Origin: an uncultured Enterobacteriaceae bacterium
GTDB lineage: Bacteria; Desulfobacterota; Binatia; Bin18
Assembly: GCA_964495015.1 (NCBI GenBank)
Contig: CAZBUD010000001.1
Span: forward strand, 69,357 to 133,356
Direction: 5' to 3'
Length of the DNA: 64,000 bases
Positions within the stretch are counted from its first letter, which is position 1, and the number at the start of each line of letters is the position of its first letter. This document shows positions 6,315 through 39,540 of the stretch, piece after piece. Made by a program: the position numbers and the translations under genes. A model generated the notes under the pieces. That model was not told the DNA's origin, ran no database searches, and saw only the letters and a list, made by a program, of their open reading frames with translations.

Positions 6315-7190
6315 ATGAAGCCTCCGCCTTTTGACTACTACGACCCAACCAGCATCGAAGAGGCCGTCGATCTGCTCCAACGTTACGGAGACGAGGCAAA
6401 GGTGCTGGCGGGCGGGCAGAGTCTTATGCCGTTGCTGAATTTTCGACTGACTTATCCGTCTGCCCTGATCGATATCAACCGCGTAGCAGACCTTTCATAT
6501 ATTCAGCAAAAAGACGGACAGATCCGTATTGGGGCGTTAACTCGGCAGAGAACGATTGAGTTTTCCGAACTAGTCCGCAGCCAGCTTCCGCTTCTGTCTG
6601 AGGCAACGACACTCGCTGGTCATCTACCCATCCGGACGCGCGGCACCATAGGCGGCAGTCTGGCCCATGCCGACCCAGCAGCAGAGTATCCAACTGTCGC
6701 GATGGCCTTAGACGCTAAACTGGTCATTCAAGGACCAAGTGGTCAGCGAGTCGTCTCAGCTGAAGAATTTTTTGTGAACTATCTCACCACCGCGCTCACA
6801 CCGAACGAAGTCTTAACTGAAGTCCACATTTCACCCCCCCCTTCGACCAGCGGTTGGGCGTTTGAAGAGTTTGCCCGGCGGCATGGGGACTTCGCCGTTG
6901 TCGGAGTTGCGGCAGTAATTGATACGGATGGCGAACAGTGTCGGACAGCGCGTTTGGCTGCCGCTGGAGTTGGGCCAACACCGATCCGGTTACGCGCAGC
7001 AGAAGACATTCTTACACAAGAGGGAGTCACCAACCAAGCCATTGAAAATGCCGCAGTCGAAGCGGCCGAACTCGTCGGACCTAATAGCGATATCCATGCG
7101 TCAGCCGCTTTTCGACGGCATTTAACCCAAGTACTGACTCGCCGCGCGGTGAAACGTGCAATTGAACGCGGCCGGGAGCGAAAGACATGA
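6315..7190 (+). CDS. Mo-hydroxylase medium (FAD-binding, CoxM/CutM-like) subunit
   Basis: 291-aa ORF. FDYYDPTSIEEAVDLL..YGDEAKVLAGGQSLMPLLNFRL and RGTIGGSLAHADPAAE are FAD_binding_5/CO_deh_flav_C hallmarks. The 4-nt ATGA overlap with the next gene indicates coupling. Confidence 0.9.
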   Translation: MKPPPFDYYDPTSIEEAVDLLQRYGDEAKVLAGGQSLMPLLNFRLTYPSALIDINRVADLSYIQQKDGQIRIGALTRQRTIEFSELVRSQLPLLSEATTLAGHLPIRTRGTIGGSLAHADPAAEYPTVAMALDAKLVIQGPSGQRVVSAEEFFVNYLTTALTPNEVLTEVHISPPPSTSGWAFEEFARRHGDFAVVGVAAVIDTDGEQCRTARLAAAGVGPTPIRLRAAEDILTQEGVTNQAIENAAVEAAELVGPNSDIHASAAFRRHLTQVLTRRAVKRAIERGRERKT

Positions 7191-7699
7191 GCGAGCCTAG
7201 ACAGATCAATCAAAATAGGCAGATCACGCTCACGATCAACGGAACAGTGCACCGCGCACAGGTTGAACCGCGCAAATTGCTGGTTGATTTTCTGCGCGAA
7301 GATCTTGGTCTGACAGGCTCACACGTCGGCTGTGAACATGGCATCTGCGGGGCGTGTACGATTCTCGTCAACGGTGAATCCGCTCGCTCGTGTCTGATGT
7401 TGGCAGTCCAGGCCGATGGGACTGAGTTGATGACGGTTGAGGGTCTTGCTCAAGATGGCAAGCTCCACCCGCTCCAAACATCTTTTTGGGAACACCACGG
7501 ACTCCAGTGTGGCTTTTGCACACCAGGGATGCTGATGGCAGCCTACGATCTCCTACAAACAAACCCGACACCAAGCGAGGAAGAAATCCGCGCAGGCGTA
7601 TCCGCGGTTCTGTGCCGCTGTACCGGCTATCAGGGGATTGTCCAGGCTGTTCAGGCGGCGGCGGAACTTCGTGTTGATAATGAGGAGACCGAGGGATGA
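7187..7699 (+). CDS. Mo-hydroxylase small (2x[2Fe-2S], CoxS/CutS-like) subunit
   Basis: 170-aa ORF with the Cys motifs GCEHGICGACTILVNG and CGFCTPGM...CRCTGY. Confidence 0.9.
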   Translation: MSEPRQINQNRQITLTINGTVHRAQVEPRKLLVDFLREDLGLTGSHVGCEHGICGACTILVNGESARSCLMLAVQADGTELMTVEGLAQDGKLHPLQTSFWEHHGLQCGFCTPGMLMAAYDLLQTNPTPSEEEIRAGVSAVLCRCTGYQGIVQAVQAAAELRVDNEETEG

Positions 7700-7811
7700 G
7701 GCGTCAGATGTTCGGTTCTTTCCCTTCTCCCTGCTAGGCAGAGCGCAGCGACTGCGAAGCGGGAGCGGGTGAGGGTCGCTCAGATGAACATTTCATTTAG
7801 AGTCCCCTCAC

Positions 7812-7844
7812 CTAAATCCTCTCCCCTAAGGGGCGAGGATTTAG
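7812..7844. repeat. REP-like GC-rich hairpin (15-nt arms, 3-nt loop, 14/15 paired) inside the 167-nt S-L spacer
   Basis: ctaaatcctctcccc-taa-ggggcgaggatttag read directly from the sequence. It has the same C-rich/G-rich (cccctc..gagggg) flavour as the hairpin at 33926-33948. Confidence 0.6.
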
Positions 7845-7865
7845 TGATAGGCAAAGAGAAACAAA

Positions 7866-10232
7866 GTGGAAGAGTTTACGCCAAAGATAGTTGGTGCGCG
7901 GGTGAAACGCAGGGAGGATCGGCGCCTCCTGACCGGCCAGGGTGCGTATGTGGACGATCATCATCTGCCGGGCATGCTTTACGCGGCCTTTCTCCGCAGC
8001 CCTCATGCACACGCACGCATCATGCAGCTTGATCCAGCTGTGGCCCAAACGCTTGAGGGCGTTATGGCCGTGGTCACGGGTGAAGAACTTGCGCGCTGGG
8101 TCAAGCCGGTTCGCGCGGCGTCGAAGATGCGCGAATATAAAGAGACCAGTTTTCCGCCGCTGGCCATTGATAAGGTGAGACATGTCGGCGAGGCCGTAGC
8201 GGTCGTTGTGGCCGAAAGCCGCTACCTGGCTGAAGATGCGCTAGAGCAAATCATTGTGGAGTATGATCCTCTCCCCGCAGTTGCCGATGCGGAAGAAGCA
8301 AGCCGAAGCGAAGCAACAGTTTTACACGAAGACGCAGGCAGCAACGTCCTCTTGTCTCGCGAATTTGTCCGAGGCGATGTGGATGCAGCGGTAGAGGCGG
8401 CGGCTGTGCGTGTCCGCGCACGCTTTCGCTTCCGTCGGCACGCCGCAGTGTGTATGGAAAATCGTGGCTGCTTGGCCGACTACAATACCGGTACCTGTGA
8501 GCTGACGCTGCGCTCTGCCACCCAATGTCCAGGCCTGCTGCGAGATGCCTTGGCCGACCTGTTAGATATGCCCGAGCATCGCATTCGTGTTGTGGCCGCC
8601 GATGTAGGCGGCGGCTTTGGAGCAAAATCATCCCTCTACCCTGAAGAGATCACCCTGTGTGCGGTCACAAGACGACTTGAACGACCGATAAAGTGGATCA
8701 GCGATCGACGGGAAGATCTCATGACCTCGACCCAGGCATGGGATGAGGTGGTTGACGCCGAACTCGGCCTACAGGCTGATGGAACAATTGTCGGACTCAG
8801 AGCAAATGTCACAACAGATATTGGCGCCTACTCGATTTATCCCTGGACAGCGACGGTTGAGCCCATTCAGACCATTAGCTTTCTGTCCGGGCCGTACCGT
8901 ATGCCCGCCTATCGGGGCCGTAACCGGGGGGTCGCTACATGTAAAGCACCGATGGGGCCGTACCGTGGCGTGGGGCGTCCGATTACGACATTCGTTCTGG
9001 AAAGTCTGATGGATCGGGCTGCACGGCGACTCGATATGGACTCTGCCGAGTTGCGTCTCAAAAACTATATCCAAGCCCACGAGTTCCCGTACAAAACACC
9101 GTCCGGCCTGGTGTGGGATCAAGCCAGCCTGACCGAATGCATGCAAAAAGCGCGAGAAGTGCTGGATTATGACACAACGAAACAATGGCGCACGCAAGCT
9201 CGGGCAGAGGGCCGTTGGGTCGGGATAGGATTTGCTACCTATATTGAACTGACCGGTGTGGGTTCCGCCATTCCCGTCTCACCAGGCATGCCCATCTCTA
9301 CCGGTACCGAGGCAGCCTTTCTTCGCGTCGATCCATCAGGAACCGTGACTGCAACGTTTAGCGTTGCTCCCCAAGGTCAGGGGCATGAAACTGCCCTGGC
9401 GCAGGTTGTCGCGGATGCACTTGGCGTTTCCTTGGACGACGTACGTATTATTTGCGGGGATACTGCTCTTGCTCCACAAGGGACGGGAACCTATGCCAGC
9501 CGAAGTGCCGTGTTAGCAGGCGGAGCAGCCATACGCGCGGGCCAGACGCTTAAAGAGAAAGCACTCAAAATTGCTGGCCATATGATGGAGAGCAATCCAG
9601 CTGATCTTGATATGCAAGACAGCCAGGTCTTCGTACCTGAAAAGCCGGAGCGTACTCTTCCCTTTCGTGATGTCGCCAAGACCGCGTACGCTGGTTTGCG
9701 ACGTCTCCCCAAAGACATGGAGCCCGGCCTAGAGGTCACGCGGTTCTACGATCCTTTCTTTGGTACAGCGTCCAGTGCTACTCACGTTGCTGTCGTGGAG
9801 GTAGATAAAGAAACCTACGAAGTGAAGATCAATCGCTATATTGTGGTTGAAGACTGCGGGCGGATTATTAATCCACTGATCGTCGACGGTCAGGTACGCG
9901 GCGGCGTAGCACAGGGCATTGGTGCGGCACTCTATGAAGAAGTTGTCTACGACGAAAAAGGCCAACTTCTGACTGGCTCACTGGTAGACTATCTCGTCCC
10001 GACCGCCTGCGAACTCCTGCCCATAGAAGTTCATCATATCGAAACCCCATCACCCACCACGCTGGGCGGCTTTCGCGGTATGGGTGAAGGCGGCACCATC
10101 GGCGCACCGGCAGCCATCGCCAATGCCGTCTCCGACGCGCTGTCTCATCTGGGGATAGAAATCAACGAAATTCCGATTACACCAGAAAAGTTGTTTCGGT
10201 TGGTGAGGGAAGCGGCAGCTAACAGACGCTAG
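7866..10232 (+). CDS. Mo-hydroxylase large (molybdopterin-binding, CoxL/XdhB-like) subunit; substrate unknown
   Basis: 788-aa ORF with a GTG start. Motifs: RREDRRLLTGQGAYVDD, ADVGGGFGAKSS and the C-terminal FRGMGEGGTIGAPAAIANAV (catalytic Glu loop). The active-site loop reads GPYRGVGRP, not the AYxCSFR loop of true CO dehydrogenase. Confidence 0.9.
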   Translation: MEEFTPKIVGARVKRREDRRLLTGQGAYVDDHHLPGMLYAAFLRSPHAHARIMQLDPAVAQTLEGVMAVVTGEELARWVKPVRAASKMREYKETSFPPLAIDKVRHVGEAVAVVVAESRYLAEDALEQIIVEYDPLPAVADAEEASRSEATVLHEDAGSNVLLSREFVRGDVDAAVEAAAVRVRARFRFRRHAAVCMENRGCLADYNTGTCELTLRSATQCPGLLRDALADLLDMPEHRIRVVAADVGGGFGAKSSLYPEEITLCAVTRRLERPIKWISDRREDLMTSTQAWDEVVDAELGLQADGTIVGLRANVTTDIGAYSIYPWTATVEPIQTISFLSGPYRMPAYRGRNRGVATCKAPMGPYRGVGRPITTFVLESLMDRAARRLDMDSAELRLKNYIQAHEFPYKTPSGLVWDQASLTECMQKAREVLDYDTTKQWRTQARAEGRWVGIGFATYIELTGVGSAIPVSPGMPISTGTEAAFLRVDPSGTVTATFSVAPQGQGHETALAQVVADALGVSLDDVRIICGDTALAPQGTGTYASRSAVLAGGAAIRAGQTLKEKALKIAGHMMESNPADLDMQDSQVFVPEKPERTLPFRDVAKTAYAGLRRLPKDMEPGLEVTRFYDPFFGTASSATHVAVVEVDKETYEVKINRYIVVEDCGRIINPLIVDGQVRGGVAQGIGAALYEEVVYDEKGQLLTGSLVDYLVPTACELLPIEVHHIETPSPTTLGGFRGMGEGGTIGAPAAIANAVSDALSHLGIEINEIPITPEKLFRLVREAAANRR

Positions 10233-29379: not shown

Positions 29380-29973
29380 ATGGTCGACAATAAAATTTTG
29401 CATATTCGTGATCGGCTTTCCAATCACAGCCCAGCTCCGGTTGATATTGAATCACCCACACGCGCTGCAGTCGCGCTGCTCCTTCAACCACAGACTGATG
29501 ACTTGCACGTTCTCTTCATCCATCGCGCCCACCATCCACAAGACCCATGGTCTGGACACATGGCTTTTCCGGGAGGCCGACATGAGCCAGAGGATCCAGA
29601 CCTGTTCGTCACAATCGAGCGTGAGACACACGAAGAAGTCGGAATCAATCTCAATGCTCAGGGCGAATATCTCGGTCGTCTGGCTGAGGTGCAAGCCATG
29701 GCTCGTGGGAAAAATACGGGCATGGCCGTTGCCCCTTTTGTCTATCTCGTGTCTGGGGAAGCGACCCCTATCCCTGATCCAGTTGAGGTACAAGATACTA
29801 TTTGGGTGCCGCTGTCGTTTATGCAGCAAGAAGATGTTGAACAGATCGTGCAACGGGATCTTCCAGACGGATCAACGATTCAAGTCCCAGCTTTGCTCTA
29901 TGGCGGAAAAACTATCTGGGGCCTAACCTACCGCATGCTGCGGGGATTTTTGGAACTCATTAACGAGTCGTGA
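29380..29973 (+). CDS. NUDIX hydrolase, CoA pyrophosphatase-like
   Basis: 197 aa. It has the Nudix box GGRHEPEDPDLFVTIERETHEEVGI, preceded by the PWSGHMAFPGG motif typical of the NudL/CoA pyrophosphatase subgroup. Confidence 0.8.
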   Translation: MVDNKILHIRDRLSNHSPAPVDIESPTRAAVALLLQPQTDDLHVLFIHRAHHPQDPWSGHMAFPGGRHEPEDPDLFVTIERETHEEVGINLNAQGEYLGRLAEVQAMARGKNTGMAVAPFVYLVSGEATPIPDPVEVQDTIWVPLSFMQQEDVEQIVQRDLPDGSTIQVPALLYGGKTIWGLTYRMLRGFLELINES

Positions 29974-29987
29974 GGGGAGGACGTGCG

Positions 29988-30344
29988 ATGCAGCAGCTCA
30001 AGAAAAGATCTGAAGAAATCGAAGAAGCGCTTATCCCAAAACCCACAGCTGCACAAAAGCCTCACTTCGTCCGTTGTAAAATTATCGGCCCTGATGGGAA
30101 AAAGCGGCCCGGTTGGGAGATGTGGCTGGGCGAGCACTGCTTTGGTCGTTCAGACTGCAAAGAGTCACTGGTCGAGAGTCTTGAACGCCAGCTGCAACCG
30201 CCCCAGTCCTTTCACTGGCGGGAAGTCCATCGGCAGCGGTTTGAGCGCGCCCGCATAGAAAAGACCCAGGACAAGAGCGGTCAGAGAGACCCGCTAGCCC
30301 TTCCTACAGCACCTCGTGTAAAAACTCTTGTACCACGTCGGTAA
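29988..30344 (+). CDS. hypothetical basic protein
   Basis: ATG 29988 has the RBS GAGGGGAGGA, immediately after the NUDIX stop. 118 aa with no motif. Its 3' end overlaps the convergent hydrolase gene by ~40 nt. Confidence 0.35.
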   Translation: MQQLKKRSEEIEEALIPKPTAAQKPHFVRCKIIGPDGKKRPGWEMWLGEHCFGRSDCKESLVESLERQLQPPQSFHWREVHRQRFERARIEKTQDKSGQRDPLALPTAPRVKTLVPRR

Positions 30345-31131
30345 ACCCGTCCGGATTATCCAGCATCACATGATGATGCGTGTCGGGCACCTCTGCCCAG
30401 CGACTATCTGGTAAGCCCGCGCACATGCGCTCAAGTTTCTGAGGGGTGAGTATCGGGCTGTGCTGGGCTTTCACAATGAGTGTGGGGCAGGCAATTCGGG
30501 CCAACAAAGGCCAACCGTTGATAGGCTCGCGAAAGAGTGTCCGCCGATCAAACTTAGACGTCCATTTCCCGTCAGATCTCTCTTTAAAAGCAAAAGAGGC
30601 GAGATAGCGCAGCTTATCAACTGAGACTAAAGACTCACGGGGAAATAGGCGAAAACGGGCTATGGCTTGCTGAGAAGAGTCAAACACTTTGGCCGGCTTA
30701 TCGCCCATTCGACGCAGCAATGTGACAGCGGCCTCAGGATAGCCTGGTTCGATATCCACCAAGATCAAGGCGCTGAGTTCATCAGCATGTTGCGCGGCAT
30801 AAATTAGCGTGTTGTGCCCACCCATCGAGTGCCCTAAGAGGCCGTGACGGCCGATCCCTAGGGTTTGGACAAGCTGCTGCAGATCGTCAATGTAATGCCG
30901 GGTACTATAGGCTGGCGCTTCTGCATGTTGACTCTCACCGTGCCCGCGCCAATCCGGAGTAATGACGTGAAAGTCTTTGGCGAAGACGGGAGCAATAAAA
31001 TCCCACCAGCGAGCGTGGGCCGAGCCACCGTGACACAGGATCAATGGGGGTTTGCCTGCCGTGCCCCAATCGAGATGATGCAGGCGCAGGTCGTTGATAG
31101 TTACGAAATGGGACTGGGGCTGGGGCATCAC
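30304..31131 (-). CDS. alpha/beta-fold hydrolase
   Basis: 275 aa. Motifs ILCHGGSAHARWW and the nucleophile elbow GHSMGG. It is the last gene of the Mo-hydroxylase supercluster. Confidence 0.85.
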   Translation of the reverse strand: MMPQPQSHFVTINDLRLHHLDWGTAGKPPLILCHGGSAHARWWDFIAPVFAKDFHVITPDWRGHGESQHAEAPAYSTRHYIDDLQQLVQTLGIGRHGLLGHSMGGHNTLIYAAQHADELSALILVDIEPGYPEAAVTLLRRMGDKPAKVFDSSQQAIARFRLFPRESLVSVDKLRYLASFAFKERSDGKWTSKFDRRTLFREPINGWPLLARIACPTLIVKAQHSPILTPQKLERMCAGLPDSRWAEVPDTHHHVMLDNPDGFTDVVQEFLHEVL

Positions 31132-31178: not shown

Positions 31179-33473
31179 TTATATTCTCTTCTTGTCCAGA
31201 ATTGCTTTGGCCACTTTAGCCGGCGACATGGGAAGTTCGGTCATGCGTACCCCCGTCGCGCGGTAGATGGCGTTTGCAATCGCTGCAGGTGGCGGGATGA
31301 TCGGTACTTCGCCTACGCCACGAATCCCGATTGGATGACCGGGGTTAGCGACTTCAACCAAGATGGTTTCGATCATAGGTAGATCAAGACACGTCGGCAT
31401 ACGGTAATCCAGAAAACCCGTGTTGCATAGCGTGCCGTCCTCGGCGTAGTAGTACTCTTCATTCAGCGCCCAGCCAACTCCTTGAGCTACGCCGCCCTGA
31501 ATCTGGCCTTCCACATAACTAGGGTGAACGGCTTTACCCACATCTTGCGCTGCAGTGTAGCGCAAGATGTCGACTTTCCCGGTTTCGGGATCGACTTCTA
31601 CATCCACGACGTGCGCTGCAAAGGCCGGACCAACACCACGCGGACGGACAGACGCCCGGCCCATGACGGGTCCTCCGGCTCGTGGAAACTTTGGCGCAAG
31701 CTCTTTTAACCCCATGGACTCATGCCCGTTACTCGTACACGACACCCTGCCATCCTGGTATATAATCTCTTCGGGTTTGACCTTCCAAATAATCGCCGCC
31801 CGCTGCTTGAGTTGATCGATGGCATCTTGGGCGGCTTGGTATACAGCAAAGCCTGTCGCAAAGGTCACCCGACTGCCACCCGTCGTATCCGTATGACCGA
31901 TAGATTCCGTATCCGCGACAACGGGATGGATTTCTTCTGCCCTCAGTCCCAACACTTCCGCTGCAATCATGGCACACGATACACGACTGCCACCAATATC
32001 GGGCGAGCCAGTGACAACGTTAGCCGTTCCATCGGTATTAATACTCACGGTCGCGCTGGACTGAAATGCGGCATTAAACCAAAAGCCGGAAGCTACCCCC
32101 CGGCCGCAGAGTTTCCCATTTTCGGCTCGCGGCAGCGGCGACTCATAGTGTGCGCTGTTCTTGATCGCCTCAATGGTTTCGAGATAGCCGATCCGTTTGA
32201 ATTTGGGCCCTGCGGGTTGGGCCGTTCCTTCTTGGGCTCCATTAATACGTCGGAGTTCCAGCGGATCAATATTGAGGTTTTCCGCGATTTCATCAATAAC
32301 GGTTTCCGCAGCCATGGCCGGGTTCGTAGCGCCAGGCGCACGATAGGCACACGTCTTGGGCTTATTGAGCACCACGTCGTAGCCGTCGACCAGGAAGTTC
32401 TCCAAGTCGTACGGAGCAAGGACGGTCATACAGCCAGCGGCAACAGGCGAGCCAGGAAACGCGCCTGCTTCAAACGACAGCTGCAGTTCGGCAGCGGTGA
32501 TTTTGCCATCAGCATTCGCCCCAATTTTGACCCGAATATGCGATCCTGGCGTCGGACCAGTGGCGCGTAGAACTTCACTTCTGGACATAACCATTCTGAC
32601 CGGACGACTTGTTATCTTGGACATAAGCAGCGCCAGAGGCTCCAAATAGACAGTCGTCTTACCGCCAAAACCACCGCCAATCTCGGCTGGCACGACTTTG
32701 ATATCGCCCGGCTTTATGTGTAGCATCGAGCCGCACAATTCACGCACGGCAAACGGCCCCTGGGTACTGACCCAGACCGTAGCTCGACCGTCTTGATTGT
32801 ACTGGGCAAGCGCATTATGCGGCTCGATATAGCCCTGGTGAACCATCGTCGTACGAAACTCACGCTCGATTACGACCTCGGCAGCTGCAAAGCCGGTTTC
32901 GAGCTCACCCCGAGAAAACTGGACGTGATTCGCGATATTGGTCTCTTCATCACTGCCTTTATCGACCCCGCCTGTCCGTAAGTCGGCATGCAGGATGACA
33001 GCATCGTCCTGCATGGCCTCAAGGACGTTTTGCACAAAGGGTAGTGGTTCATACTCCACCTTGATGCGCTTCAATGCCTCATCGGCAATATGCGGGCTTG
33101 TTGCCGCGACTGCTGCGACCGCGTGTCCATCGTACAAGACCTTATCCCGGGCCATGATATTAAACGCTAAGTGGCGCGGATTGACAAAATTCTCACCTAT
33201 TTGCAGCATGCCAGGTGCAATATCGGGGAAGTCGGCTCCGGTAATGACACCTTTGACACCTGGTAGGGCTTTAGCCGCAGACGTATCAATAGATTTGATA
33301 AACGCGTGCGCATGGGGACTGCGTAACACTTTTCCGTGCAACAGTCCGGGCAGCGTAATATCCGCGCCATATCTAGCTCTGCCTGTGACCTTATCAACGC
33401 CGTCATGCCGAATCGGACGGGTTCCGATTACTTTGAATTGATGCTCCGGTTGATGCTTTTGGTCCGACTCCAT
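31179..33473 (-). CDS. Mo-hydroxylase large subunit, paralogue L2
   Basis: The start is chosen at ATG 33473 (RBS AGGAGAGGAAG). Motifs FKVIGTRPIRHDGVDKVTGRARYGAD, AEIGGGFGGK, AYRAPGATN and IRGVGEVPIIPPPAAIANAI. It is ~70% identical by eye to L1 (33959..36229). Confidence 0.9.
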   Translation of the reverse strand: MESDQKHQPEHQFKVIGTRPIRHDGVDKVTGRARYGADITLPGLLHGKVLRSPHAHAFIKSIDTSAAKALPGVKGVITGADFPDIAPGMLQIGENFVNPRHLAFNIMARDKVLYDGHAVAAVAATSPHIADEALKRIKVEYEPLPFVQNVLEAMQDDAVILHADLRTGGVDKGSDEETNIANHVQFSRGELETGFAAAEVVIEREFRTTMVHQGYIEPHNALAQYNQDGRATVWVSTQGPFAVRELCGSMLHIKPGDIKVVPAEIGGGFGGKTTVYLEPLALLMSKITSRPVRMVMSRSEVLRATGPTPGSHIRVKIGANADGKITAAELQLSFEAGAFPGSPVAAGCMTVLAPYDLENFLVDGYDVVLNKPKTCAYRAPGATNPAMAAETVIDEIAENLNIDPLELRRINGAQEGTAQPAGPKFKRIGYLETIEAIKNSAHYESPLPRAENGKLCGRGVASGFWFNAAFQSSATVSINTDGTANVVTGSPDIGGSRVSCAMIAAEVLGLRAEEIHPVVADTESIGHTDTTGGSRVTFATGFAVYQAAQDAIDQLKQRAAIIWKVKPEEIIYQDGRVSCTSNGHESMGLKELAPKFPRAGGPVMGRASVRPRGVGPAFAAHVVDVEVDPETGKVDILRYTAAQDVGKAVHPSYVEGQIQGGVAQGVGWALNEEYYYAEDGTLCNTGFLDYRMPTCLDLPMIETILVEVANPGHPIGIRGVGEVPIIPPPAAIANAIYRATGVRMTELPMSPAKVAKAILDKKRI

Positions 33474-33524
33474 ACTTCCTCTCCTACACAAAAACGGGGA
33501 AGAGTACTGTCTACCCTTCCCCGT

Positions 33525-33812
33525 TCAACCGTCATCATTACTTCGTTCGCATCCGCCCCCGATGGCTGGCACAAAATGGATTTCGCTTTCAGCCGGGACG
33601 GACTCGTGTAACCCTTCGGTACTAATTTCTCCGTTGACAGATACCGCAATGGAGCCGGTCAGGTCGCCGTTCTCGATAACACGGTCACGAAAACCAGGAA
33701 ATTGGCGTTCGAGGTCTTCAATAATTTCTCTCACCGTTGCTCCGAGCGCGTCTGTCCGATCTCTTCCACCGGTCAGTTTGCGCAGAAGTGAGGGAATAAA
33801 GACAGTTGCCAT
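33525..33812 (-). CDS. MoaD/ThiS/CysO-type beta-grasp sulfur-carrier-like protein with a C-terminal extension after Gly-Gly
   Basis: I place the start at ATG 33812, because the longer track ORF runs through a REP hairpin. MATVFIPSLLRKLTGGRDRTDALGATVREIIEDLERQFPGF..RVIENGDL..SIAVSVNGE......GL.ESVPAESEIHFVPAIGGG follows the CysO/MoaD pattern, and is followed by CERSNDDG before the stop. Confidence 0.8.
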   Translation of the reverse strand: MATVFIPSLLRKLTGGRDRTDALGATVREIIEDLERQFPGFRDRVIENGDLTGSIAVSVNGEISTEGLHESVPAESEIHFVPAIGGGCERSNDDG

Positions 33813-33958: not shown

Positions 33959-36229
33959 TTACCCGTTTTTCTCCAAGATCGCCTTACACAGCCGGGGTGG
34001 CGACATCGGCAGATCGGCCATGCGGACCCCGGTCGCGCTGTAGATCGCGTTAGCGATAGCTGCAGGCGGGGGGATGATAGGCACCTCGCCCACACCGCGT
34101 ACGCCAACCGGATGGCCCGGGTTGGGCACCTCGACCAGCACGGTTTCAATCATGGGCAGGTCCAGGCAGGTCGGCATCCGATAGTCCAGAAAGCCCGCGT
34201 TCTGCATTCTGCCGTCATCACCGTAGACGTATTCTTCGTTGAGCGCCCAACCGATGCCTTGGGCCACACCGCCCTGCATCTGGCCTTCAACATAGCTCGG
34301 ATGAATAGCAGTACCAACATCCTGGACTGCAGTGTAGCGTAGAATATCGACCTTGCCGGTCTCCTCATCAACCGCGACATCCACCACATGGGTGGCAAAG
34401 GCGGGACCAACGCCACGCGGGTTGACCGACGCCCGGCCCGTGACTGGCCCGCCCGTACGCGGCAGTTTGCCCGAGAGTTCTTTGAGAGTCATCGACTCGT
34501 TGCCATTAGCCGTGCAGGTGAATACGCCGTCCTGAAACGTGACTTTATCGGCTTCGACTTTCCAAGACTTCGCAGCACGCTCTTTCAGTTGACTGAGCAC
34601 ATCCTGAGCCGCTTCGTATACCGCAGTCCCGGTGGCAAAGGTCACCCGGCTGCCGCCGGTCATATCGGTATGACCAATGGACTCGGTATCCGCCACAACG
34701 GGGTGAACTTCTTCTGCAGTCAGTCCCAAGACCTCAGCCGCAATCATGGCGCACGACGTCCGCGTGCCACCAATATCGGTCGAACCGGTTACCACATTGG
34801 CCGTGCCATCGCTATTAATCGCTACAGTCGCGCTCGACTGAAAACCGGCGTTGAACCAAAAACCCGATGCCACACCACGCCCAACCCGCCGGCCTTCGAC
34901 CTTGGGCAACTCGGATTTAAAGTGGTCACTGGTCTTAGCCGCCTCAACAGTTTCGAGATAGCCGATCTGTCCAAATTTTGGGCCGGCCGGTTGGGCCGTG
35001 CCCTCTTTAGCCCCATTGATGCGCCGGAATTGAAGCGGATCTATGCCGAGCTTTTCCGCTAGCTCGTCAATAACGGTCTCTGAGCCCATGGACGCATTGG
35101 TTGACCCTGGAGCCCTGTATGCTGCTGTCTTGGGCTTATTGACCAACACGTCATAGCCGTCGATCTTGAGGTTCTCAATGTCATACGGGGTAATAACCGT
35201 CATACAGCCGGCGCCAACCGGGGAGCCCGGGAACCCGCCCGCTTCATACGCCATCCAGACTTCGGCAGCCGTAATTTTTCCGTCCTTATCCGCGCCCATC
35301 TTCACCTTGATATGTGAGCCCGGAGTCGGCCCGGTGGCTTTAAGCACCTCAGCCCGGCTCATGACCATCTTGACCGGCTTGCCTGTTTTTTTTGATAGAA
35401 TCAAGGAAATAGGTTCAAAGTAGACTGGAATCTTGCCGCCAAACCCACCACCGATTTCGGCCGGAATGACCTTAATTTTACTTGCCGGCATGTCAAGAAC
35501 CATGGCCGTTTGATCACGGGCCGTAAACGCACCCTGAGTGCTCACCCAAATCGTGCTTTGCCCGTCCGAACTGTATTGGGCCACCGAGTTATGAGGCTCG
35601 ATATAGCCCTGGTGGACCATGGAGGTATCAAATTCGCGCTCAACGACGACCTCAGCCGCGGCAAACCCGGCAGCAAGATCGCCGCGCTCGAACTGAACAT
35701 GGTTGGCAACATTGGTGTCTTTTGGTTCCCCCTCGTTCCCTTTTCCTAATCCAGGTAAGAGAATGGGGGCATCATCATTCATGGCTTCCATAACGTTCTG
35801 CACATGTGGCAGCACTTCATAGTCAACCTTGATCAGTTTGAGTGCTTCCTCAGCAATATGCGGGCTCGTCGCTGCAACCGCAGCCACAACATGGCCGTCG
35901 TAGACGACCTTGTCCCGGGCGATACAGTTCAAAGACATATGTTGCGGGTTGACCGGCAGCTCACCCATTTGGGCCATACCCGGTTCAATATTCGGCAAAT
36001 CTTGAGCAGTAACCACAGCCTTCACCCCAGGCAGAGCCTCGGCAGCTGAGGTATCGATTGATTTAATATTGGCGTGGGCATGTGGGCTGCGCAGGGTTTT
36101 ACCATGCAGGAGGCCCGCCAGATCGATATCGGCCCCGTACTGCGCCCGACCTGTGACCTTATCAGCGCCGTCGTGTCGAATCGGACGCGTCCCAATGACC
36201 TTAAACTTGTGTTCTTGCTGCGCTGCCAT
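33959..36229 (-). CDS. Mo-hydroxylase large subunit, paralogue L1
   Basis: 756 aa. Its ATG lies 2 nt after the S-subunit stop, with the RBS GGGAGG. Motifs FKVIGTRPIRHDGADKVTGRAQYGAD, AEIGGGFGGK, AYRAPGSTN and VRGVGEVPIIPPPAAIANAI. Confidence 0.9.
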   Translation of the reverse strand: MAAQQEHKFKVIGTRPIRHDGADKVTGRAQYGADIDLAGLLHGKTLRSPHAHANIKSIDTSAAEALPGVKAVVTAQDLPNIEPGMAQMGELPVNPQHMSLNCIARDKVVYDGHVVAAVAATSPHIAEEALKLIKVDYEVLPHVQNVMEAMNDDAPILLPGLGKGNEGEPKDTNVANHVQFERGDLAAGFAAAEVVVEREFDTSMVHQGYIEPHNSVAQYSSDGQSTIWVSTQGAFTARDQTAMVLDMPASKIKVIPAEIGGGFGGKIPVYFEPISLILSKKTGKPVKMVMSRAEVLKATGPTPGSHIKVKMGADKDGKITAAEVWMAYEAGGFPGSPVGAGCMTVITPYDIENLKIDGYDVLVNKPKTAAYRAPGSTNASMGSETVIDELAEKLGIDPLQFRRINGAKEGTAQPAGPKFGQIGYLETVEAAKTSDHFKSELPKVEGRRVGRGVASGFWFNAGFQSSATVAINSDGTANVVTGSTDIGGTRTSCAMIAAEVLGLTAEEVHPVVADTESIGHTDMTGGSRVTFATGTAVYEAAQDVLSQLKERAAKSWKVEADKVTFQDGVFTCTANGNESMTLKELSGKLPRTGGPVTGRASVNPRGVGPAFATHVVDVAVDEETGKVDILRYTAVQDVGTAIHPSYVEGQMQGGVAQGIGWALNEEYVYGDDGRMQNAGFLDYRMPTCLDLPMIETVLVEVPNPGHPVGVRGVGEVPIIPPPAAIANAIYSATGVRMADLPMSPPRLCKAILEKNG

Positions 36230-36231
36230 GA

Positions 36232-36708
36232 TTACCTCCCTTGCATTTCAGAAGCGGCATCCTGGACCGCTCTCACAATTTTGTCATAGCCTGTGCAGCG
36301 GCAGAGATTGCCGGCCAGGGCGTAACGTATTTCGTGTTCGGTTGGATTGGGATTACGGTCGAGCAGCGCCTTGGACGTGACCAGAAAGCCAGGCGTGCAG
36401 ATCCCGCACTGGAGCGCCGCATGCTCGAGAAATTTCTTTTGCAGCGGATGCAGCGTATCTCCATCAGCCAACCCTTCCACGGTCGTAATCTCTTTGCCTT
36501 CCGCCTCAACACCAAGTACGAGACACGAGTCGGCGGGCCGTCCGTCCATAATGACGCTACATGCGCCACAGTCACCCGTCAGACAGCCTTCTTTTGTGCC
36601 CGTATACCCGACGACGTCACGCAGCACTTCGAGCAAACTCTGACGTGGTTCACACAAAAACTCGGTCTCTTCTCCGTTTAAAGTCATTTGAACATGTACT
36701 TTTTTCAT
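36232..36708 (-). CDS. Mo-hydroxylase small (2x[2Fe-2S]) subunit
   Basis: 158 aa. Motifs TGDCGACSVIMDG and CGICTPGF...CRCTGY. Confidence 0.9.
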   Translation of the reverse strand: MKKVHVQMTLNGEETEFLCEPRQSLLEVLRDVVGYTGTKEGCLTGDCGACSVIMDGRPADSCLVLGVEAEGKEITTVEGLADGDTLHPLQKKFLEHAALQCGICTPGFLVTSKALLDRNPNPTEHEIRYALAGNLCRCTGYDKIVRAVQDAASEMQGR

Positions 36709-36767: not shown

Positions 36768-37637
36768 TCATCGTGCGCGTGCGCGTGCGGCCGCTTCCTT
36801 CAGGGTGCGCCGGGTGAGGACGCCAACCAGATGGGTCCGAAACTCTGCCGTGCCCCGCATATCATCAATGGGCGAGGCTGCTTGCTGAGCAAGTTTTGCC
36901 GCCGCAGCAATAGTCTCATCATTCAGCGGCCTGCCCACAAGGGAATCTCCCGCTTCTTTGGCAAAGAGTGGTCGTGCGGCAACCGCACCCAGACCAATGC
37001 GCGCGGCCGTACAGGTGTTCCCATCAAGGGCAACACACGAACCCACACCGACGACGGCAATATCCATTTCATTTCGGGGAATAAAGCGTTGGTAACAATC
37101 AGCAGCCTTTCCTTGCAGCGCAGGAATCCGCAGTTCTACGAGGAGTTCATTGGGTTCAAGCACCGTTTGGCCAGGAGCAGTTACAAAATCTTCAACCGGA
37201 ACCTCACGCGTACCATTGGGTCCGGCGATGTGACATACGGCGCTCAGGGCTATCAGAGCCGGTGTTGTATCTGCTGCGGGCGATCCATTACATACATTTC
37301 CGCCCACCGACGCGCGCGCGAGCACCTGATCGGAACCAATCAGTCCAGCGGCTTCTACTAGCCCGGGATATTGCTGCTGCGCGGTGGCATCTTCGATGAT
37401 CTTACAGCAGGCCAGCGAAGCTCCGAGGCGGAGTCCATTCTGGGTGTTAAAAGACAGCGTTTGGAGTTCTGGGATCTTTTTGGCGTCAATCACCTGTCCC
37501 GGTTGTCGTACACCAGCACGCATCTGGATAATCAGATCCGTGCCTCCAGCTAACAGACGCCCATTTTCACCCGCCGCCGCCAGCATGCTGATGGCCTGAT
37601 CGAGCGAAGTCGGCGCTTCATAAGTCAGTTCGTGCAA
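36768..37637 (-). CDS. Mo-hydroxylase medium (FAD-binding) subunit
   Basis: 289 aa with a TTG start and the RBS AGGAGGA. Motifs LLAGGTDLIIQMR and ASVGGNVCNGSPAADT. Confidence 0.9.
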   Translation of the reverse strand: MHELTYEAPTSLDQAISMLAAAGENGRLLAGGTDLIIQMRAGVRQPGQVIDAKKIPELQTLSFNTQNGLRLGASLACCKIIEDATAQQQYPGLVEAAGLIGSDQVLARASVGGNVCNGSPAADTTPALIALSAVCHIAGPNGTREVPVEDFVTAPGQTVLEPNELLVELRIPALQGKAADCYQRFIPRNEMDIAVVGVGSCVALDGNTCTAARIGLGAVAARPLFAKEAGDSLVGRPLNDETIAAAAKLAQQAASPIDDMRGTAEFRTHLVGVLTRRTLKEAAARARAR

Positions 37638-37762: not shown

Positions 37763-38362
37763 CTACGTTTTTGTGGCACCCACCCACTGGGCGTACGCTT
37801 TGGGAGTATCAATATCGGCCCGGATACCTGGATCGTCGAAGCAGACTTCCCGGACGCGATTGGGGTCCTTTCGGACGACTACTTTGGCGCCTTGATCCAG
37901 CGGCGCGGCCAGAATCTCCCCATATACGAGACTGGAGAAAAGGACAGGATGTCCTCGTCGGCCTTGATACGAAGCAATAATAATGGGGAGTGGATCTGCG
38001 CGAAATGACGAGATAAGCGTTTGTATTGTCTCTGCCTTCACCAGGGGATGGTCCACCAGATTCACAACAGCCGCCTCACTTTCGGACGACAGCGCATGAA
38101 TGCCAAACATAAGCGACGATAATTGCCCAAGTCGATGGCGTGGATTCACCCTAACCTGGAGCATACGATGATCCGGCACGGCGGCGCGGATTCTCCCCTC
38201 ATGTTCATGCGCTCCGAGAACAACGATCAATTCGTCTACTCCGGCAGTCACGAAAGCATCACAGATATTCTCAATAAACGTCCGTCCCTGGTAGTCGAGT
38301 AACGCTTTGGGCGAGCCCATACGCCGCGACTCACCTGCAGCCAAGACAATTCCGGAGATCAT
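37763..38362 (-). CDS. mocA: MobA-like nucleotidyltransferase, probable molybdenum cofactor cytidylyltransferase
   Basis: 199 aa. Motif GIVLAAGESRRMGSPKALL. An ATGA overlap with the xdhC stop and the position within a Mo-hydroxylase cluster support the call. Confidence 0.75.
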   Translation of the reverse strand: MISGIVLAAGESRRMGSPKALLDYQGRTFIENICDAFVTAGVDELIVVLGAHEHEGRIRAAVPDHRMLQVRVNPRHRLGQLSSLMFGIHALSSESEAAVVNLVDHPLVKAETIQTLISSFRADPLPIIIASYQGRRGHPVLFSSLVYGEILAAPLDQGAKVVVRKDPNRVREVCFDDPGIRADIDTPKAYAQWVGATKT

Positions 38363-39540
38363 GAACGGTTGGAGCCCGTGAACTTGAGTGCCCCGCTCGG
38401 ACGAGCCTTGGCCGCCAACGAGAGCGTATCAACCGGACCGTTACGACGCGCCCGTATGAGCTCAGCAGCAATTGCAACCGCAATCTCAGCTGGTGTTTCG
38501 GCCGCAATATCAAGTCCCAAAGGCGTGTGCACCCGGCTCAGGTCTTGCGGGTTATAGCCCTGTTCAACCAGGCGTTCGAGCGTCCTCTTTGACCGGCGCC
38601 GACTCCCAATCATACCGATATAGGCCGGGTTCTTTTTGAGCACAATCTTGACCGAAACTTCATCCCATACATGTCCACGCGTCACCACAACTACCAAGGT
38701 CTGCTCTTTCATATCGAGGCTGTTTAACACGTCTTCAAACGGTCCGACTCGAATATCTGCCGCACGGGGAAAGCGTTCACGATTGGCAAAGGCCTGACGG
38801 TCGTCCACCACGACAGTATGAAAGCCCAGCATGAAACCTATTTCACATAAGGGCTGAGCAATATGTCCAGCACCAACGATGAGTAAGGTCTGAAGCCCGG
38901 TCTGGACATCTACAAAAACACGTGGCCAATCCTCCTTGCGAGCAACAGCGTCTTCGAATACTTCACCGTTTGGTGAGACGGCAAAGAGTTGTGGTTTCCC
39001 GGTAGAAAGTGACGAAGAAAAAGTTTTGACTGTTTCCTCTGCAATGGGAACATCCGGAGAGAGAGACGCGCCACTCGGGTCGAGAGACAGACAGCTTTTT
39101 GTACCGGGTAGTACATCACGGACAGAATTGAGGGCCGTCACCAAAGCCGCCGGACGACGGGCATGGGCTGCCTGTGCCAACGTATGGGCAAGTTCGCGGT
39201 GTTCATCCGGCCGCCACAGATCGAGCGCGACGTCCATCAAACCACCACAGACCTGGATTTCATCCTGGTCGAAATCGCCCGTTAGATCAACCTGAACAAT
39301 GCGTGGAGACAGATTTTGGCGTGGCGGTAGGTTTTGGTCGAGAAGCGGATAGGCTCGGCGCAGGACTTCGCCTTCACCACATCCGCCACCAATCGTTCCA
39401 AACGGCTGCCCTTCGGGCGGGACAACCATTTTTGCGCCAACTTCACGCGGGACTGACCCGCGTGTACGGATAATGGTGGCTAAAACAAACGGCTTACCGG
39501 ATGCCAAAATTTCTTCGGCACGTTCCCAGAGATCTTCCAC
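38359..39540 (-). CDS. xdhC: XdhC/CoxI-family Moco insertion/sulfuration accessory protein
   Basis: 393 aa with a GTG start. It has the N-terminal XdhC_CoxI motif (GKPFVLATIIRTRGSVPREVGAKMVV) and a C-terminal Rossmann domain (LLIVGAGHIAQPL...VVVTRGH..D). Confidence 0.85.
   Translation of the reverse strand: MEDLWERAEEILASGKPFVLATIIRTRGSVPREVGAKMVVPPEGQPFGTIGGGCGEGEVLRRAYPLLDQNLPPRQNLSPRIVQVDLTGDFDQDEIQVCGGLMDVALDLWRPDEHRELAHTLAQAAHARRPAALVTALNSVRDVLPGTKSCLSLDPSGASLSPDVPIAEETVKTFSSSLSTGKPQLFAVSPNGEVFEDAVARKEDWPRVFVDVQTGLQTLLIVGAGHIAQPLCEIGFMLGFHTVVVDDRQAFANRERFPRAADIRVGPFEDVLNSLDMKEQTLVVVVTRGHVWDEVSVKIVLKKNPAYIGMIGSRRRSKRTLERLVEQGYNPQDLSRVHTPLGLDIAAETPAEIAVAIAAELIRARRNGPVDTLSLAAKARPSGALKFTGSNRS

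Follow-up and report, generated by a model that had tools for sequence, protein, structure and literature searches.

The stretch of DNA described here, hereafter the window, comprises 64,000 nucleotides (contig C1:69357-133356) of an approximately 90% complete genome whose nearest relative is a Binatia metagenome-assembled genome (MAG); the metagenome runs that contain the sequence are marine, so that the organism is most likely a marine member of Binatia. On the minus strand of the window lies a gene cluster for a molybdenum hydroxylase of the xanthine dehydrogenase (XDH) family, and within this cluster a small open reading frame (ORF; 33525-33812, minus strand, 95 codons) encodes a sulfur carrier-like protein, referred to below as the carrier. 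Its 95-residue translation, MATVFIPSLLRKLTGGRDRTDALGATVREIIEDLERQFPGFRDRVIENGDLTGSIAVSVNGEISTEGLHESVPAESEIHFVPAIGGGCERSNDDG, begins MATVFIPSLLRKLTGG and ends EIHFVPAIGGGCERSNDDG at the stop codon; the first 87 codons, from Met1 to Gly87 (33552..33812), form a core equivalent to the full-length protein of most relatives, and the last eight (33528..33551), encoding CERSNDDG, are a strain-specific extension. Gene order across many genomes indicates that the carrier belongs to a conserved module with the subunits of its enzyme, and the extension is a young loss of a stop codon.

The minus-strand genes encode, in order of transcription, XdhC, a MocA-like protein, the M, S and L1 subunits, the carrier, a second catalytic subunit (L2) and an alpha/beta hydrolase. 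The XdhC-family molybdenum cofactor (Moco) chaperone (38359..39540) matches Pfam XdhC_CoxI and XdhC_C and scores 288 bits with NCBIfam XdhC_rel_AOR, below its cut-off of 350, and the MocA-like molybdenum cofactor cytidylyltransferase (37763..38362) matches Pfam NTP_transf_3 and scores 151.9 bits with matur_MocA_YgfJ, below the cut-off of 186. The FAD-binding M subunit (36768..37637; Pfam FAD_binding_5 and CO_deh_flav_C) has 289 residues and is presumably shorter than HcrB with its [4Fe-4S] insertion, a comparison of length only. It is followed by the S subunit with two [2Fe-2S] clusters (36232..36708; Fer2_2 and Fer2) and by L1, the Mo-cofactor-binding catalytic subunit of 756 residues (33959..36229; Ald_Xan_dh_C, MoCoBD_1 and MoCoBD_2), for which the closest solved structure is the alpha subunit of 4-hydroxybenzoyl-CoA reductase (1rm6_A, E 3e-103). 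L2 (31179..33491) is a tandem paralogue, 73% identical to L1 and itself a full-length XDH-family Mo subunit, and the alpha/beta hydrolase gene (30304-31131) comes after it.

The carrier is, as judged from sequence profiles and a predicted fold, a CysO/MoaD-type beta-grasp protein, in agreement with the original prediction, which had been made from the sequence alone and whose quoted motifs are all found. The assignment follows from three results. A profile search for the ThiS/MoaD family gives a match to Pfam ThiS (PF02597) covering residues 8-87 with 39.4 bits, well above the cut-off of 22.5; a profile of the carrier family run against the PDB matches CysO best among solved proteins (4n6e_B, E 1e-14; 3dwg_C, E 1e-11); and an AlphaFold2 model (predicted local distance difference test score, pLDDT, 82.8, with a poorly defined tail at pLDDT 55-63) superimposes in Foldseek on CysO first (TM 0.84-0.89), then on SAMP1, a Thermus MoaD-related protein, MoaD and Urm1, with a probability of 1.00 for the beta-grasp folds of CysO, SAMP1, MoaD and Urm1. 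The best NCBIfam match is the SAMP1 equivalog NF041918 at 41.1 bits, under its cut-off of 60, and TIGR01687 (moaD_arch) gives 36.3 bits, under 49.5. Within its own genome the carrier is 38% identical (44 bits) to a CysO encoded on contig C46 and 35% identical (39 bits) to a protein on C38 that is linked to an aldehyde oxidoreductase (AOR); the MoaD domain of the same genome shares only 28% identity with it.

To define the genomic context of the carrier we scanned one genome per prokaryotic species, which yielded 317 loci encoding a carrier relative, and analysed the best 80, comparing the window proteins by BLAST with all ORFs of these loci. Most of these 80 loci belong to Binatia, and the others to Dehalococcoidia/SAR202, Methylomirabilota, Gemmataceae and Bryobacterales. 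In 76 of the 80 the carrier gene is immediately preceded, on its own strand, by an XDH-family L gene; of the four exceptions, one is cut at a contig end and another has a 1-kb gap. M and S are located upstream of L in 69. Retention of the carrier in orthologous clusters, which the original prediction had proposed to check, is thus high, at approximately 76 of 79 informative loci. The identities of L and carrier to their window counterparts co-vary (Spearman 0.91), which is consistent with joint inheritance of the two genes but may merely reflect shared genome phylogeny. On this synteny the conserved unit is an FAD subunit, a 2Fe-2S subunit, the Mo subunit L and the carrier. No conserved structure was found in the spacer between L1 and the carrier, which has a fold z-score of -1.35 and a sequence that is unalignable between genera.

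In the window the carrier gene is indeed wedged between two catalytic subunit genes, as had been pointed out, but this arrangement is lineage-specific. Only 38 of the 80 loci have a second L gene after the carrier, and we regard L2 as a later addition; from these comparisons, the position between L1 and L2 is the outcome of a Binatia-specific tandem duplication after an ancestral four-gene operon. L2 is absent from the Binatia loci L038, L040 and L049 and from all of the Dehalococcoidia, and is fragmented in L052 (L052:10441-13122); as the carrier and L1 are intact in all four of these Binatia genomes, L2 is not required and has no fixed link with the carrier. The earlier suggestion that the carrier might modify L2 is weak for the same reason, the constant neighbour being the upstream L.

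The association is also specific within the genome. At least eight XDH-family L genes are present, and only the L1 operon has a carrier; a second complete M-S-L operon within the window itself (6315-10232, plus strand), with an L subunit 29% identical to L1, is not followed by a carrier gene and provides an internal control. By tblastn the genome has a single XdhC locus and a single MocA locus, both in the carrier cluster, and with at least eight L genes to supply these two proteins therefore probably serve all of the paralogous XDH-family enzymes. We considered whether the carrier substitutes for XdhC in species with no adjacent xdhC gene and ruled this out, as XdhC is encoded in 20 of 21 genomes, far from the operon. 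Within the class Binatia the carrier was found in 60 of 201 sampled genomes (approximately 70% lack it), always in single copy; in the family to which the window belongs, 24 of 25 genomes have it. A phylum-level sample was uninformative for prevalence (5/151 Binatia) and the class-level search was used instead.

A NUDIX gene recurs near the module. In the window it lies at 29380-29973 on the plus strand, opposite to the module, and encodes a CoA-pyrophosphatase-like protein, with the same arrangement in Binatia. The Dehalococcoidia gene is MutT1-like, directly downstream of the module and followed by a GNAT acetyltransferase gene (L079:10341-11386 and about 13 other loci). Because the two subfamilies differ, the recurrence may be coincidental or convergent, and NUDIX is not established as a conserved functional partner. 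The genes around the operon, for the alpha/beta hydrolase, the CoA-pyrophosphatase-like NUDIX protein and an LLM oxidoreductase, together with the similarity of L1 to 4-hydroxybenzoyl-CoA reductase, make aromatic or heteroaromatic acids and their CoA thioesters candidate substrates.

The C-terminus of the carrier is under selection. Five residues (F80, P82, A83, G86 and G87) are invariant in 48 sequences reaching down to 46% identity, and the F-x-P-A-x-x-G-G end, together with a stop that normally falls right at Gly87, is by its sequence the signature of C-terminal activation by an E1 enzyme. A search of 5.8 billion proteins returned 337 homologues, nearly all of 87 residues. Among the matches listed, which include 120 proteins other than that of the window, 117 end exactly in ...HFVPAI[A/G]GG, including four that are 92-95% identical to the carrier. 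Only three have residues beyond Gly-Gly, namely AAD, ATN and C (the last in P0074, which ends GGGC), and these are mutually unrelated. The masked Gly-Gly that had been proposed as a trait of the family is therefore not one. The species-representative genomes agree, with 69 of the 80 carriers ending at Gly-Gly, ten with tails of 2-12 residues that have no similarity to one another, and one frameshifted. A further carrier, in G265, ends GGRI. Whereas the window strain has eight residues beyond Gly86-Gly87, the protein thus terminates there in 69 of 79 species, and because the ten tails are unrelated, masking of the Gly-Gly is, on the sequences, of repeated origin and tolerated rather than a conserved device.

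The origin of the window tail is evident when its DNA is aligned with that of L020 and L021, the two nearest relatives. Both read GGC GGA TGA ATA CGA CGT AAA GAC GAC GGT TGA at this site, and the window reads GGC GGA TGC GAA CGA AGT AAT GAT GAC GGT TGA. A TGC codon (Cys88; 33549..33551) therefore stands in place of the ancestral TGA, and the bases that follow, which are homologous in L020 and L021 but untranslated there, are collinear with the tail, showing that it is former intergenic spacer read through to the next in-frame TGA (33525..33527). Contigs from publicly available marine metagenomes were compared at the third base of this codon (plus-strand position 33549). G (TGC), the allele of the window, is present in contigs from three runs, although these may include the source samples of the MAG and are not fully independent; A (TGT, also Cys) occurs in a second strain background in run X1; and T (TGA, stop) in a third strain background in run X2. 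The recurrence of TGC in the contigs of three runs and the TGT of a second strain rule out an assembly error as the source of the tail, and the stop loss is genuine, young and polymorphic among co-occurring marine strains.

The present stop lies inside the 5' arm of a 15-bp hairpin that is followed by U-rich sequence (33492..33526, minus strand) and separates the carrier gene from L2. The RNA fold has a predicted energy of -27 kcal/mol (z = -4.7, with none of 200 shuffled sequences equally stable) and the sequence is kept in L020, the nearest relative; the hairpin, which may mark an old operon end, could terminate transcription in part or stabilise the mRNA. The first-start call for L2, a TTG at 33491, falls within the U-tract, and the true start is likely the ATG at 33473, which lies behind the ribosome-binding site GGAGAGGAAG and gives a protein of 764 residues.

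No partner for a sulfur carrier is encoded close by. Profiles for ThiF, MoaE, Prok-JAB, rhodanese and class-V aminotransferase have zero matches in the window, in line with the earlier remark that MoaE, E1, rhodanese, cysteine desulfurase and JAMM genes are not recognisable there, and the partners were sought in the rest of the genome. A stand-alone Prok-JAB (JAMM) gene, the only one in the genome, is located at C53:13698-14177, and the candidate E1 enzymes are a rhodanese-ThiF protein (C7:3069-4229) and two further ThiF proteins on C46. The rhodanese-ThiF gene belongs to a conserved trio (C7:3069-6475) that encodes an E1 with an N-terminal rhodanese domain, a ThiS-like protein and a transketolase-like protein and is also present in L125 (G016). 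Contig C46 carries a separate CysO-type cluster consisting of a CysO-like protein ending AGG, two PALP enzymes dependent on pyridoxal phosphate (PLP), provisionally CysM-like and ThrC-like, and the two ThiF proteins. Two AOR loci have MoaD-like genes of their own, one at C5:98000-101949, where ferredoxin, AOR and FAD-oxidoreductase genes are arranged as in AorABC, and one at C38:1296-3339.

The genome encodes eight ThiS-family proteins, four of which have residues beyond Gly-Gly: the carrier, a ThiS ending GGGC (C78:12952-13161), a ThiS-like protein ending GGVRE (C7:4287-4544) and a TtuB-like protein ending SGGV (C37:9057-9326). With half of the carriers tailed and one stand-alone Prok-JAB available, the sequences suggest that this organism generally trims its sulfur carriers at the C-terminus, and the tolerance of tails would be explained if a housekeeping JAMM peptidase removed them. 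A JAMM/JAB gene was found in 26 of 26 carrier-bearing genomes compared with 7 of 14 control genomes; as all 26 have one, its presence is uninformative for discriminating species with and without tails.

The carrier is not the only MoaD-type protein of the genome, a possibility that the original prediction had named as damaging to it. Contig C35 (26942-27697) encodes an in-frame MoaD-MoaE fusion, joined at ...IPPVSGG-SMADIH... and similar to MoaX of M. tuberculosis. Among other carrier-bearing genomes, MoaE was found in all 16 that were checked. Twelve of these were searched for ThiS-family genes as well, and in every one MoaD is beside or fused to MoaE. MoaD-MoaE frames of 246-290 residues occur in all eight other Binatia genomes checked (L106-L114), and a cleaved, fused molybdopterin (MPT) synthase may be the norm in Binatia.

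Our preferred interpretation, to which we give a probability of about one half, is that the carrier is activated in trans and is dedicated to the L1-type enzyme, bringing sulfur for the maturation of its cofactor. We favour it because of the E1-type C-terminus, the constant Mo-subunit partner, the position of the sole XdhC and MocA genes in this cluster and the precedent of carriers linked to AOR. An E1 encoded elsewhere, with the C7 rhodanese-ThiF protein and the two ThiF proteins on C46 as candidates, would adenylate the C-terminal Gly of the 87-residue core and convert it to a thiocarboxylate, whose sulfur would be spent on maturing the molybdopterin-cytosine-dinucleotide (MCD) cofactor of this enzyme. 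The sulfur could go to the dithiolene, in which case the carrier would act together with the MoaE domain, or to the terminal Mo=S, a ligand specific to the XDH family, in which case it would act together with XdhC. The window tail might be trimmed by the unlinked JAMM, as may also happen to the three other tailed carriers, or the allele may be impaired.

The precedent is that of MoaD genes strictly adjacent to AOR genes, which were inferred to make the pterin for AOR (Iyer, Burroughs and Aravind 2006, PMC1779556), and of AorD and AorE of Aromatoleum aromaticum, MoaD-like proteins that are not in purified AOR and are proposed to be maturation factors (PMC6365974). By analogy the carrier would be to XDH-family enzymes what the MoaD-like genes are to the tungsten AOR beside which they lie. 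Like them it is a stand-alone gene beside the catalytic subunit of a pterin enzyme, in a genome with a separate Moco locus, and its product ends in Gly-Gly. It differs in that its partner is an XDH-family molybdenum hydroxylase with MCD, Mo=S, FAD and 2Fe-2S centres rather than a tungsten AOR, and AOR-linked MoaD genes are often accompanied by MoeB or MoaE, neither of which is near the carrier in the 80 loci. The maturation role of the AOR-linked genes, including AorD and AorE, is itself a proposal.

Several observations weigh against this interpretation. Genes for a ThiF/MoeZ E1, MoaE, JAMM and CysM are absent within 10 kb in all 80 loci, and the link of the carrier to any sulfur acceptor is one that we infer. 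The known bacterial route to Mo=S uses XdhC and a cysteine-desulfurase persulfide rather than a thiocarboxylate (PMC13653126), and a second donor of dithiolene sulfur seems redundant because all of the genomes already have a canonical MoaD. The carrier sequence is nearer to CysO than to MoaD and lies below the NCBIfam cut-offs for both SAMP1 and moaD_arch. If the tails in ten of the 79 species are not trimmed, a free C-terminus may be dispensable. Finally, no carrier fused to a larger protein was found when an L1-carrier concatenate was searched against the 5.8 billion proteins and matches to the carrier part were scored.

Long frames encountered around ThiS matches in other genomes proved to be TGS domains of RelA/SpoT or a ThiS-like gene next to one for a transketolase, and a 936-residue frame in G265 is an out-of-frame artefact of DNA with 74% GC. 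In locus L129 of a high-GC Binatia genome (G289:C12:184000-187500, plus strand), the carrier frame continues past GGG into approximately 250 residues with an S-adenosylmethionine (SAM)-methyltransferase motif, VLDVPAGGG, and may be a carrier-methyltransferase fusion made by stop loss.

The most far-reaching reading, which we consider possible but rather unlikely, is that the carrier thiocarboxylate sulfurates the Mo centre directly, installing or repairing Mo=S and, at the extreme, doing so at every turnover with formation of C-S bonds. XDH-family enzymes are known to be encoded with dedicated accessory factors for this ligand, such as XdhC with a cysteine desulfurase (NifS4 or IscS) or the eukaryotic ABA3/HMCS, and XdhC is encoded in this cluster. 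In those routes, however, the donors are persulfides on PLP-dependent desulfurases and no thiocarboxylate carrier takes part, and neither MoaD nor any sulfur carrier is named for the Mo=S role in a review of the sulfido ligand from 2026 (PMC13653126).

An improbable alternative is that the carrier has no sulfur chemistry at all and is a non-catalytic fourth subunit or an assembly chaperone that binds L, in the manner of TmoB on toluene monooxygenase. Beta-grasp proteins are known in such a role, TmoB being an example (PMC1779556), and the strict adjacency and co-variation with L, the lack of a linked E1 and the tolerance of sporadic tails would fit a structural protein. The invariant F-x-P-A-x-x-G-G and the normal end at Gly-Gly argue otherwise, as they are a signature of C-terminal activation that a purely structural subunit would not be expected to have, and the analogous AorD and AorE do not copurify with AOR (PMC6365974).

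Still more doubtful is a role as a protein modifier similar to SAMP or TtuB, with the E1-activated carrier conjugated through Gly87 to lysines of L or of other proteins and a JAMM enzyme acting as deconjugase. SAMP1 of Haloferax volcanii resembles the carrier in fold and length, provides its best NCBIfam match and is represented among its top structural matches, and the presence of JAMM genes in every carrier-bearing genome compared with half of the controls would fit a need for deconjugation. SAMP1 acts both as a Moco-related sulfur carrier and as a protein modifier. The carrier, however, is bacterial, scores below the equivalog cut-off (41 versus 60 bits) and has no linked UbaA-type E1; the sequence data point to no conjugation target, and cofactor chemistry is the simpler explanation for sharing an operon with a pterin enzyme. 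Known SAMP and TtuB proteins carry sulfur as well, so that one role does not preclude the other.

The reading advanced in the original prediction, that the extension is a functional proteolytic gate like those of QbsE and PdtH and keeps the carrier inactive until a dedicated JAMM frees it, has in our estimate only a slim chance of being right. The tail does exist in the window strain and, as in QbsE and PdtH, begins with Cys, a residue kept in both of the Cys88 alleles (TGC and TGT); P0074 and the genome's ThiS both end GGGC, and a JAMM gene is present somewhere in the genome. In the QbsE and PdtH systems, however, the extension and an adjacent JAMM gene are conserved (PMC1779556), whereas here the extension is a strain-level TGA-to-TGC loss. 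It is lacking in almost all of the other listed homologues, in most species loci and in relatives 92-95% identical, it is collinear with the untranslated spacer of relatives, a co-occurring strain retains the stop, the tails of other species share no sequence with it or with each other, and JAMM is linked in none of the 80 loci.

We attach a similarly low likelihood to the proposal, which is by analogy, that the thiocarboxylate is a co-substrate, with Mo re-sulfurated at each turnover, the substrate thiolated through a C-S bond and two electrons leaving by the FeS/FAD chain. The carrier is encoded one-to-one with a catalytic subunit rather than with cofactor-synthesis genes, and it is closest to CysO, a sulfur donor to small molecules. 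Both L1 and L2, however, keep the GVGE motif, which presumably holds the catalytic Glu of ordinary hydroxylases, and no conserved thiol-handling or product-related genes are nearby. The model for such chemistry would be metallopterin ergothioneine synthase (MES), which makes C-S bonds and in which a fused cysteine desulfurase re-sulfurates Mo=S in each cycle (PMC9516567), but MES is a persulfide-using member of the dimethyl sulfoxide (DMSO)-reductase family and the support it lends is purely analogical.

Least credible is that the carrier is an ordinary MoaD, the small subunit of MPT synthase, that happens to sit in an XDH-family operon, as the ThiS/MoaD membership, the lower-ranked MoaD fold matches and the weak moaD_arch match would allow. 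The separate, canonical MoaD-MoaE found in every genome examined already refutes it, and the absence of the carrier from most sampled Binatia and its low identity to the genome's own MoaD domain also speak against it. A place in the CysO pathway is not indicated either. The carrier is 30-38% identical to CysO (M. tuberculosis 3DWG/3DWM; Amycolatopsis 4N6E) and shares the N-terminal IPxxLR..TGG and the C-terminal PA(I/V)(A/G)GG, but CysO has CysM, MoeZ and Mec+ as partners, and their genes usually lie in one cluster with its own; no association with these was found within 10 kb of the carrier in the 80 loci.

In the open-access literature, including the 2006 survey and the 2026 review, we found no account of XDH-family or cox clusters that contain a ThiS/MoaD-family gene. 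The M-S-L-carrier module of XDH-family operons thus appears to be undescribed, and the suggestion that a sulfur carrier would be new for these enzymes holds as far as this literature extends. The novelty is limited to the new enzyme family, because the idea of an enzyme-linked carrier is already known for AOR.

The real interest of this locus is the conserved M-S-L-carrier module, the masked Gly-Gly that first drew attention to it being an ordinary strain-level mutation; the recurrent, unrelated tails beyond Gly-Gly nevertheless constitute a small natural experiment on the tolerance of a carrier to C-terminal masking. The supply of sulfur for the cofactor of bacterial XDH-family enzymes is only partly known, and the described routes all use persulfides. 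A conserved, single-copy carrier encoded beside the catalytic subunit is a concrete candidate for enzyme-dedicated sulfur delivery in molybdenum hydroxylases, and if this is true, thiocarboxylate delivery to Mo would be a route alongside XdhC and the cysteine-desulfurase persulfide. The carrier is present in several hundred genomes at the species level, from Binatia, Dehalococcoidia/SAR202 and further uncultured lineages. The module extends the theme of AOR-linked MoaD to a second family of pterin enzymes, and flags an uncharacterised clade of enzymes within it.

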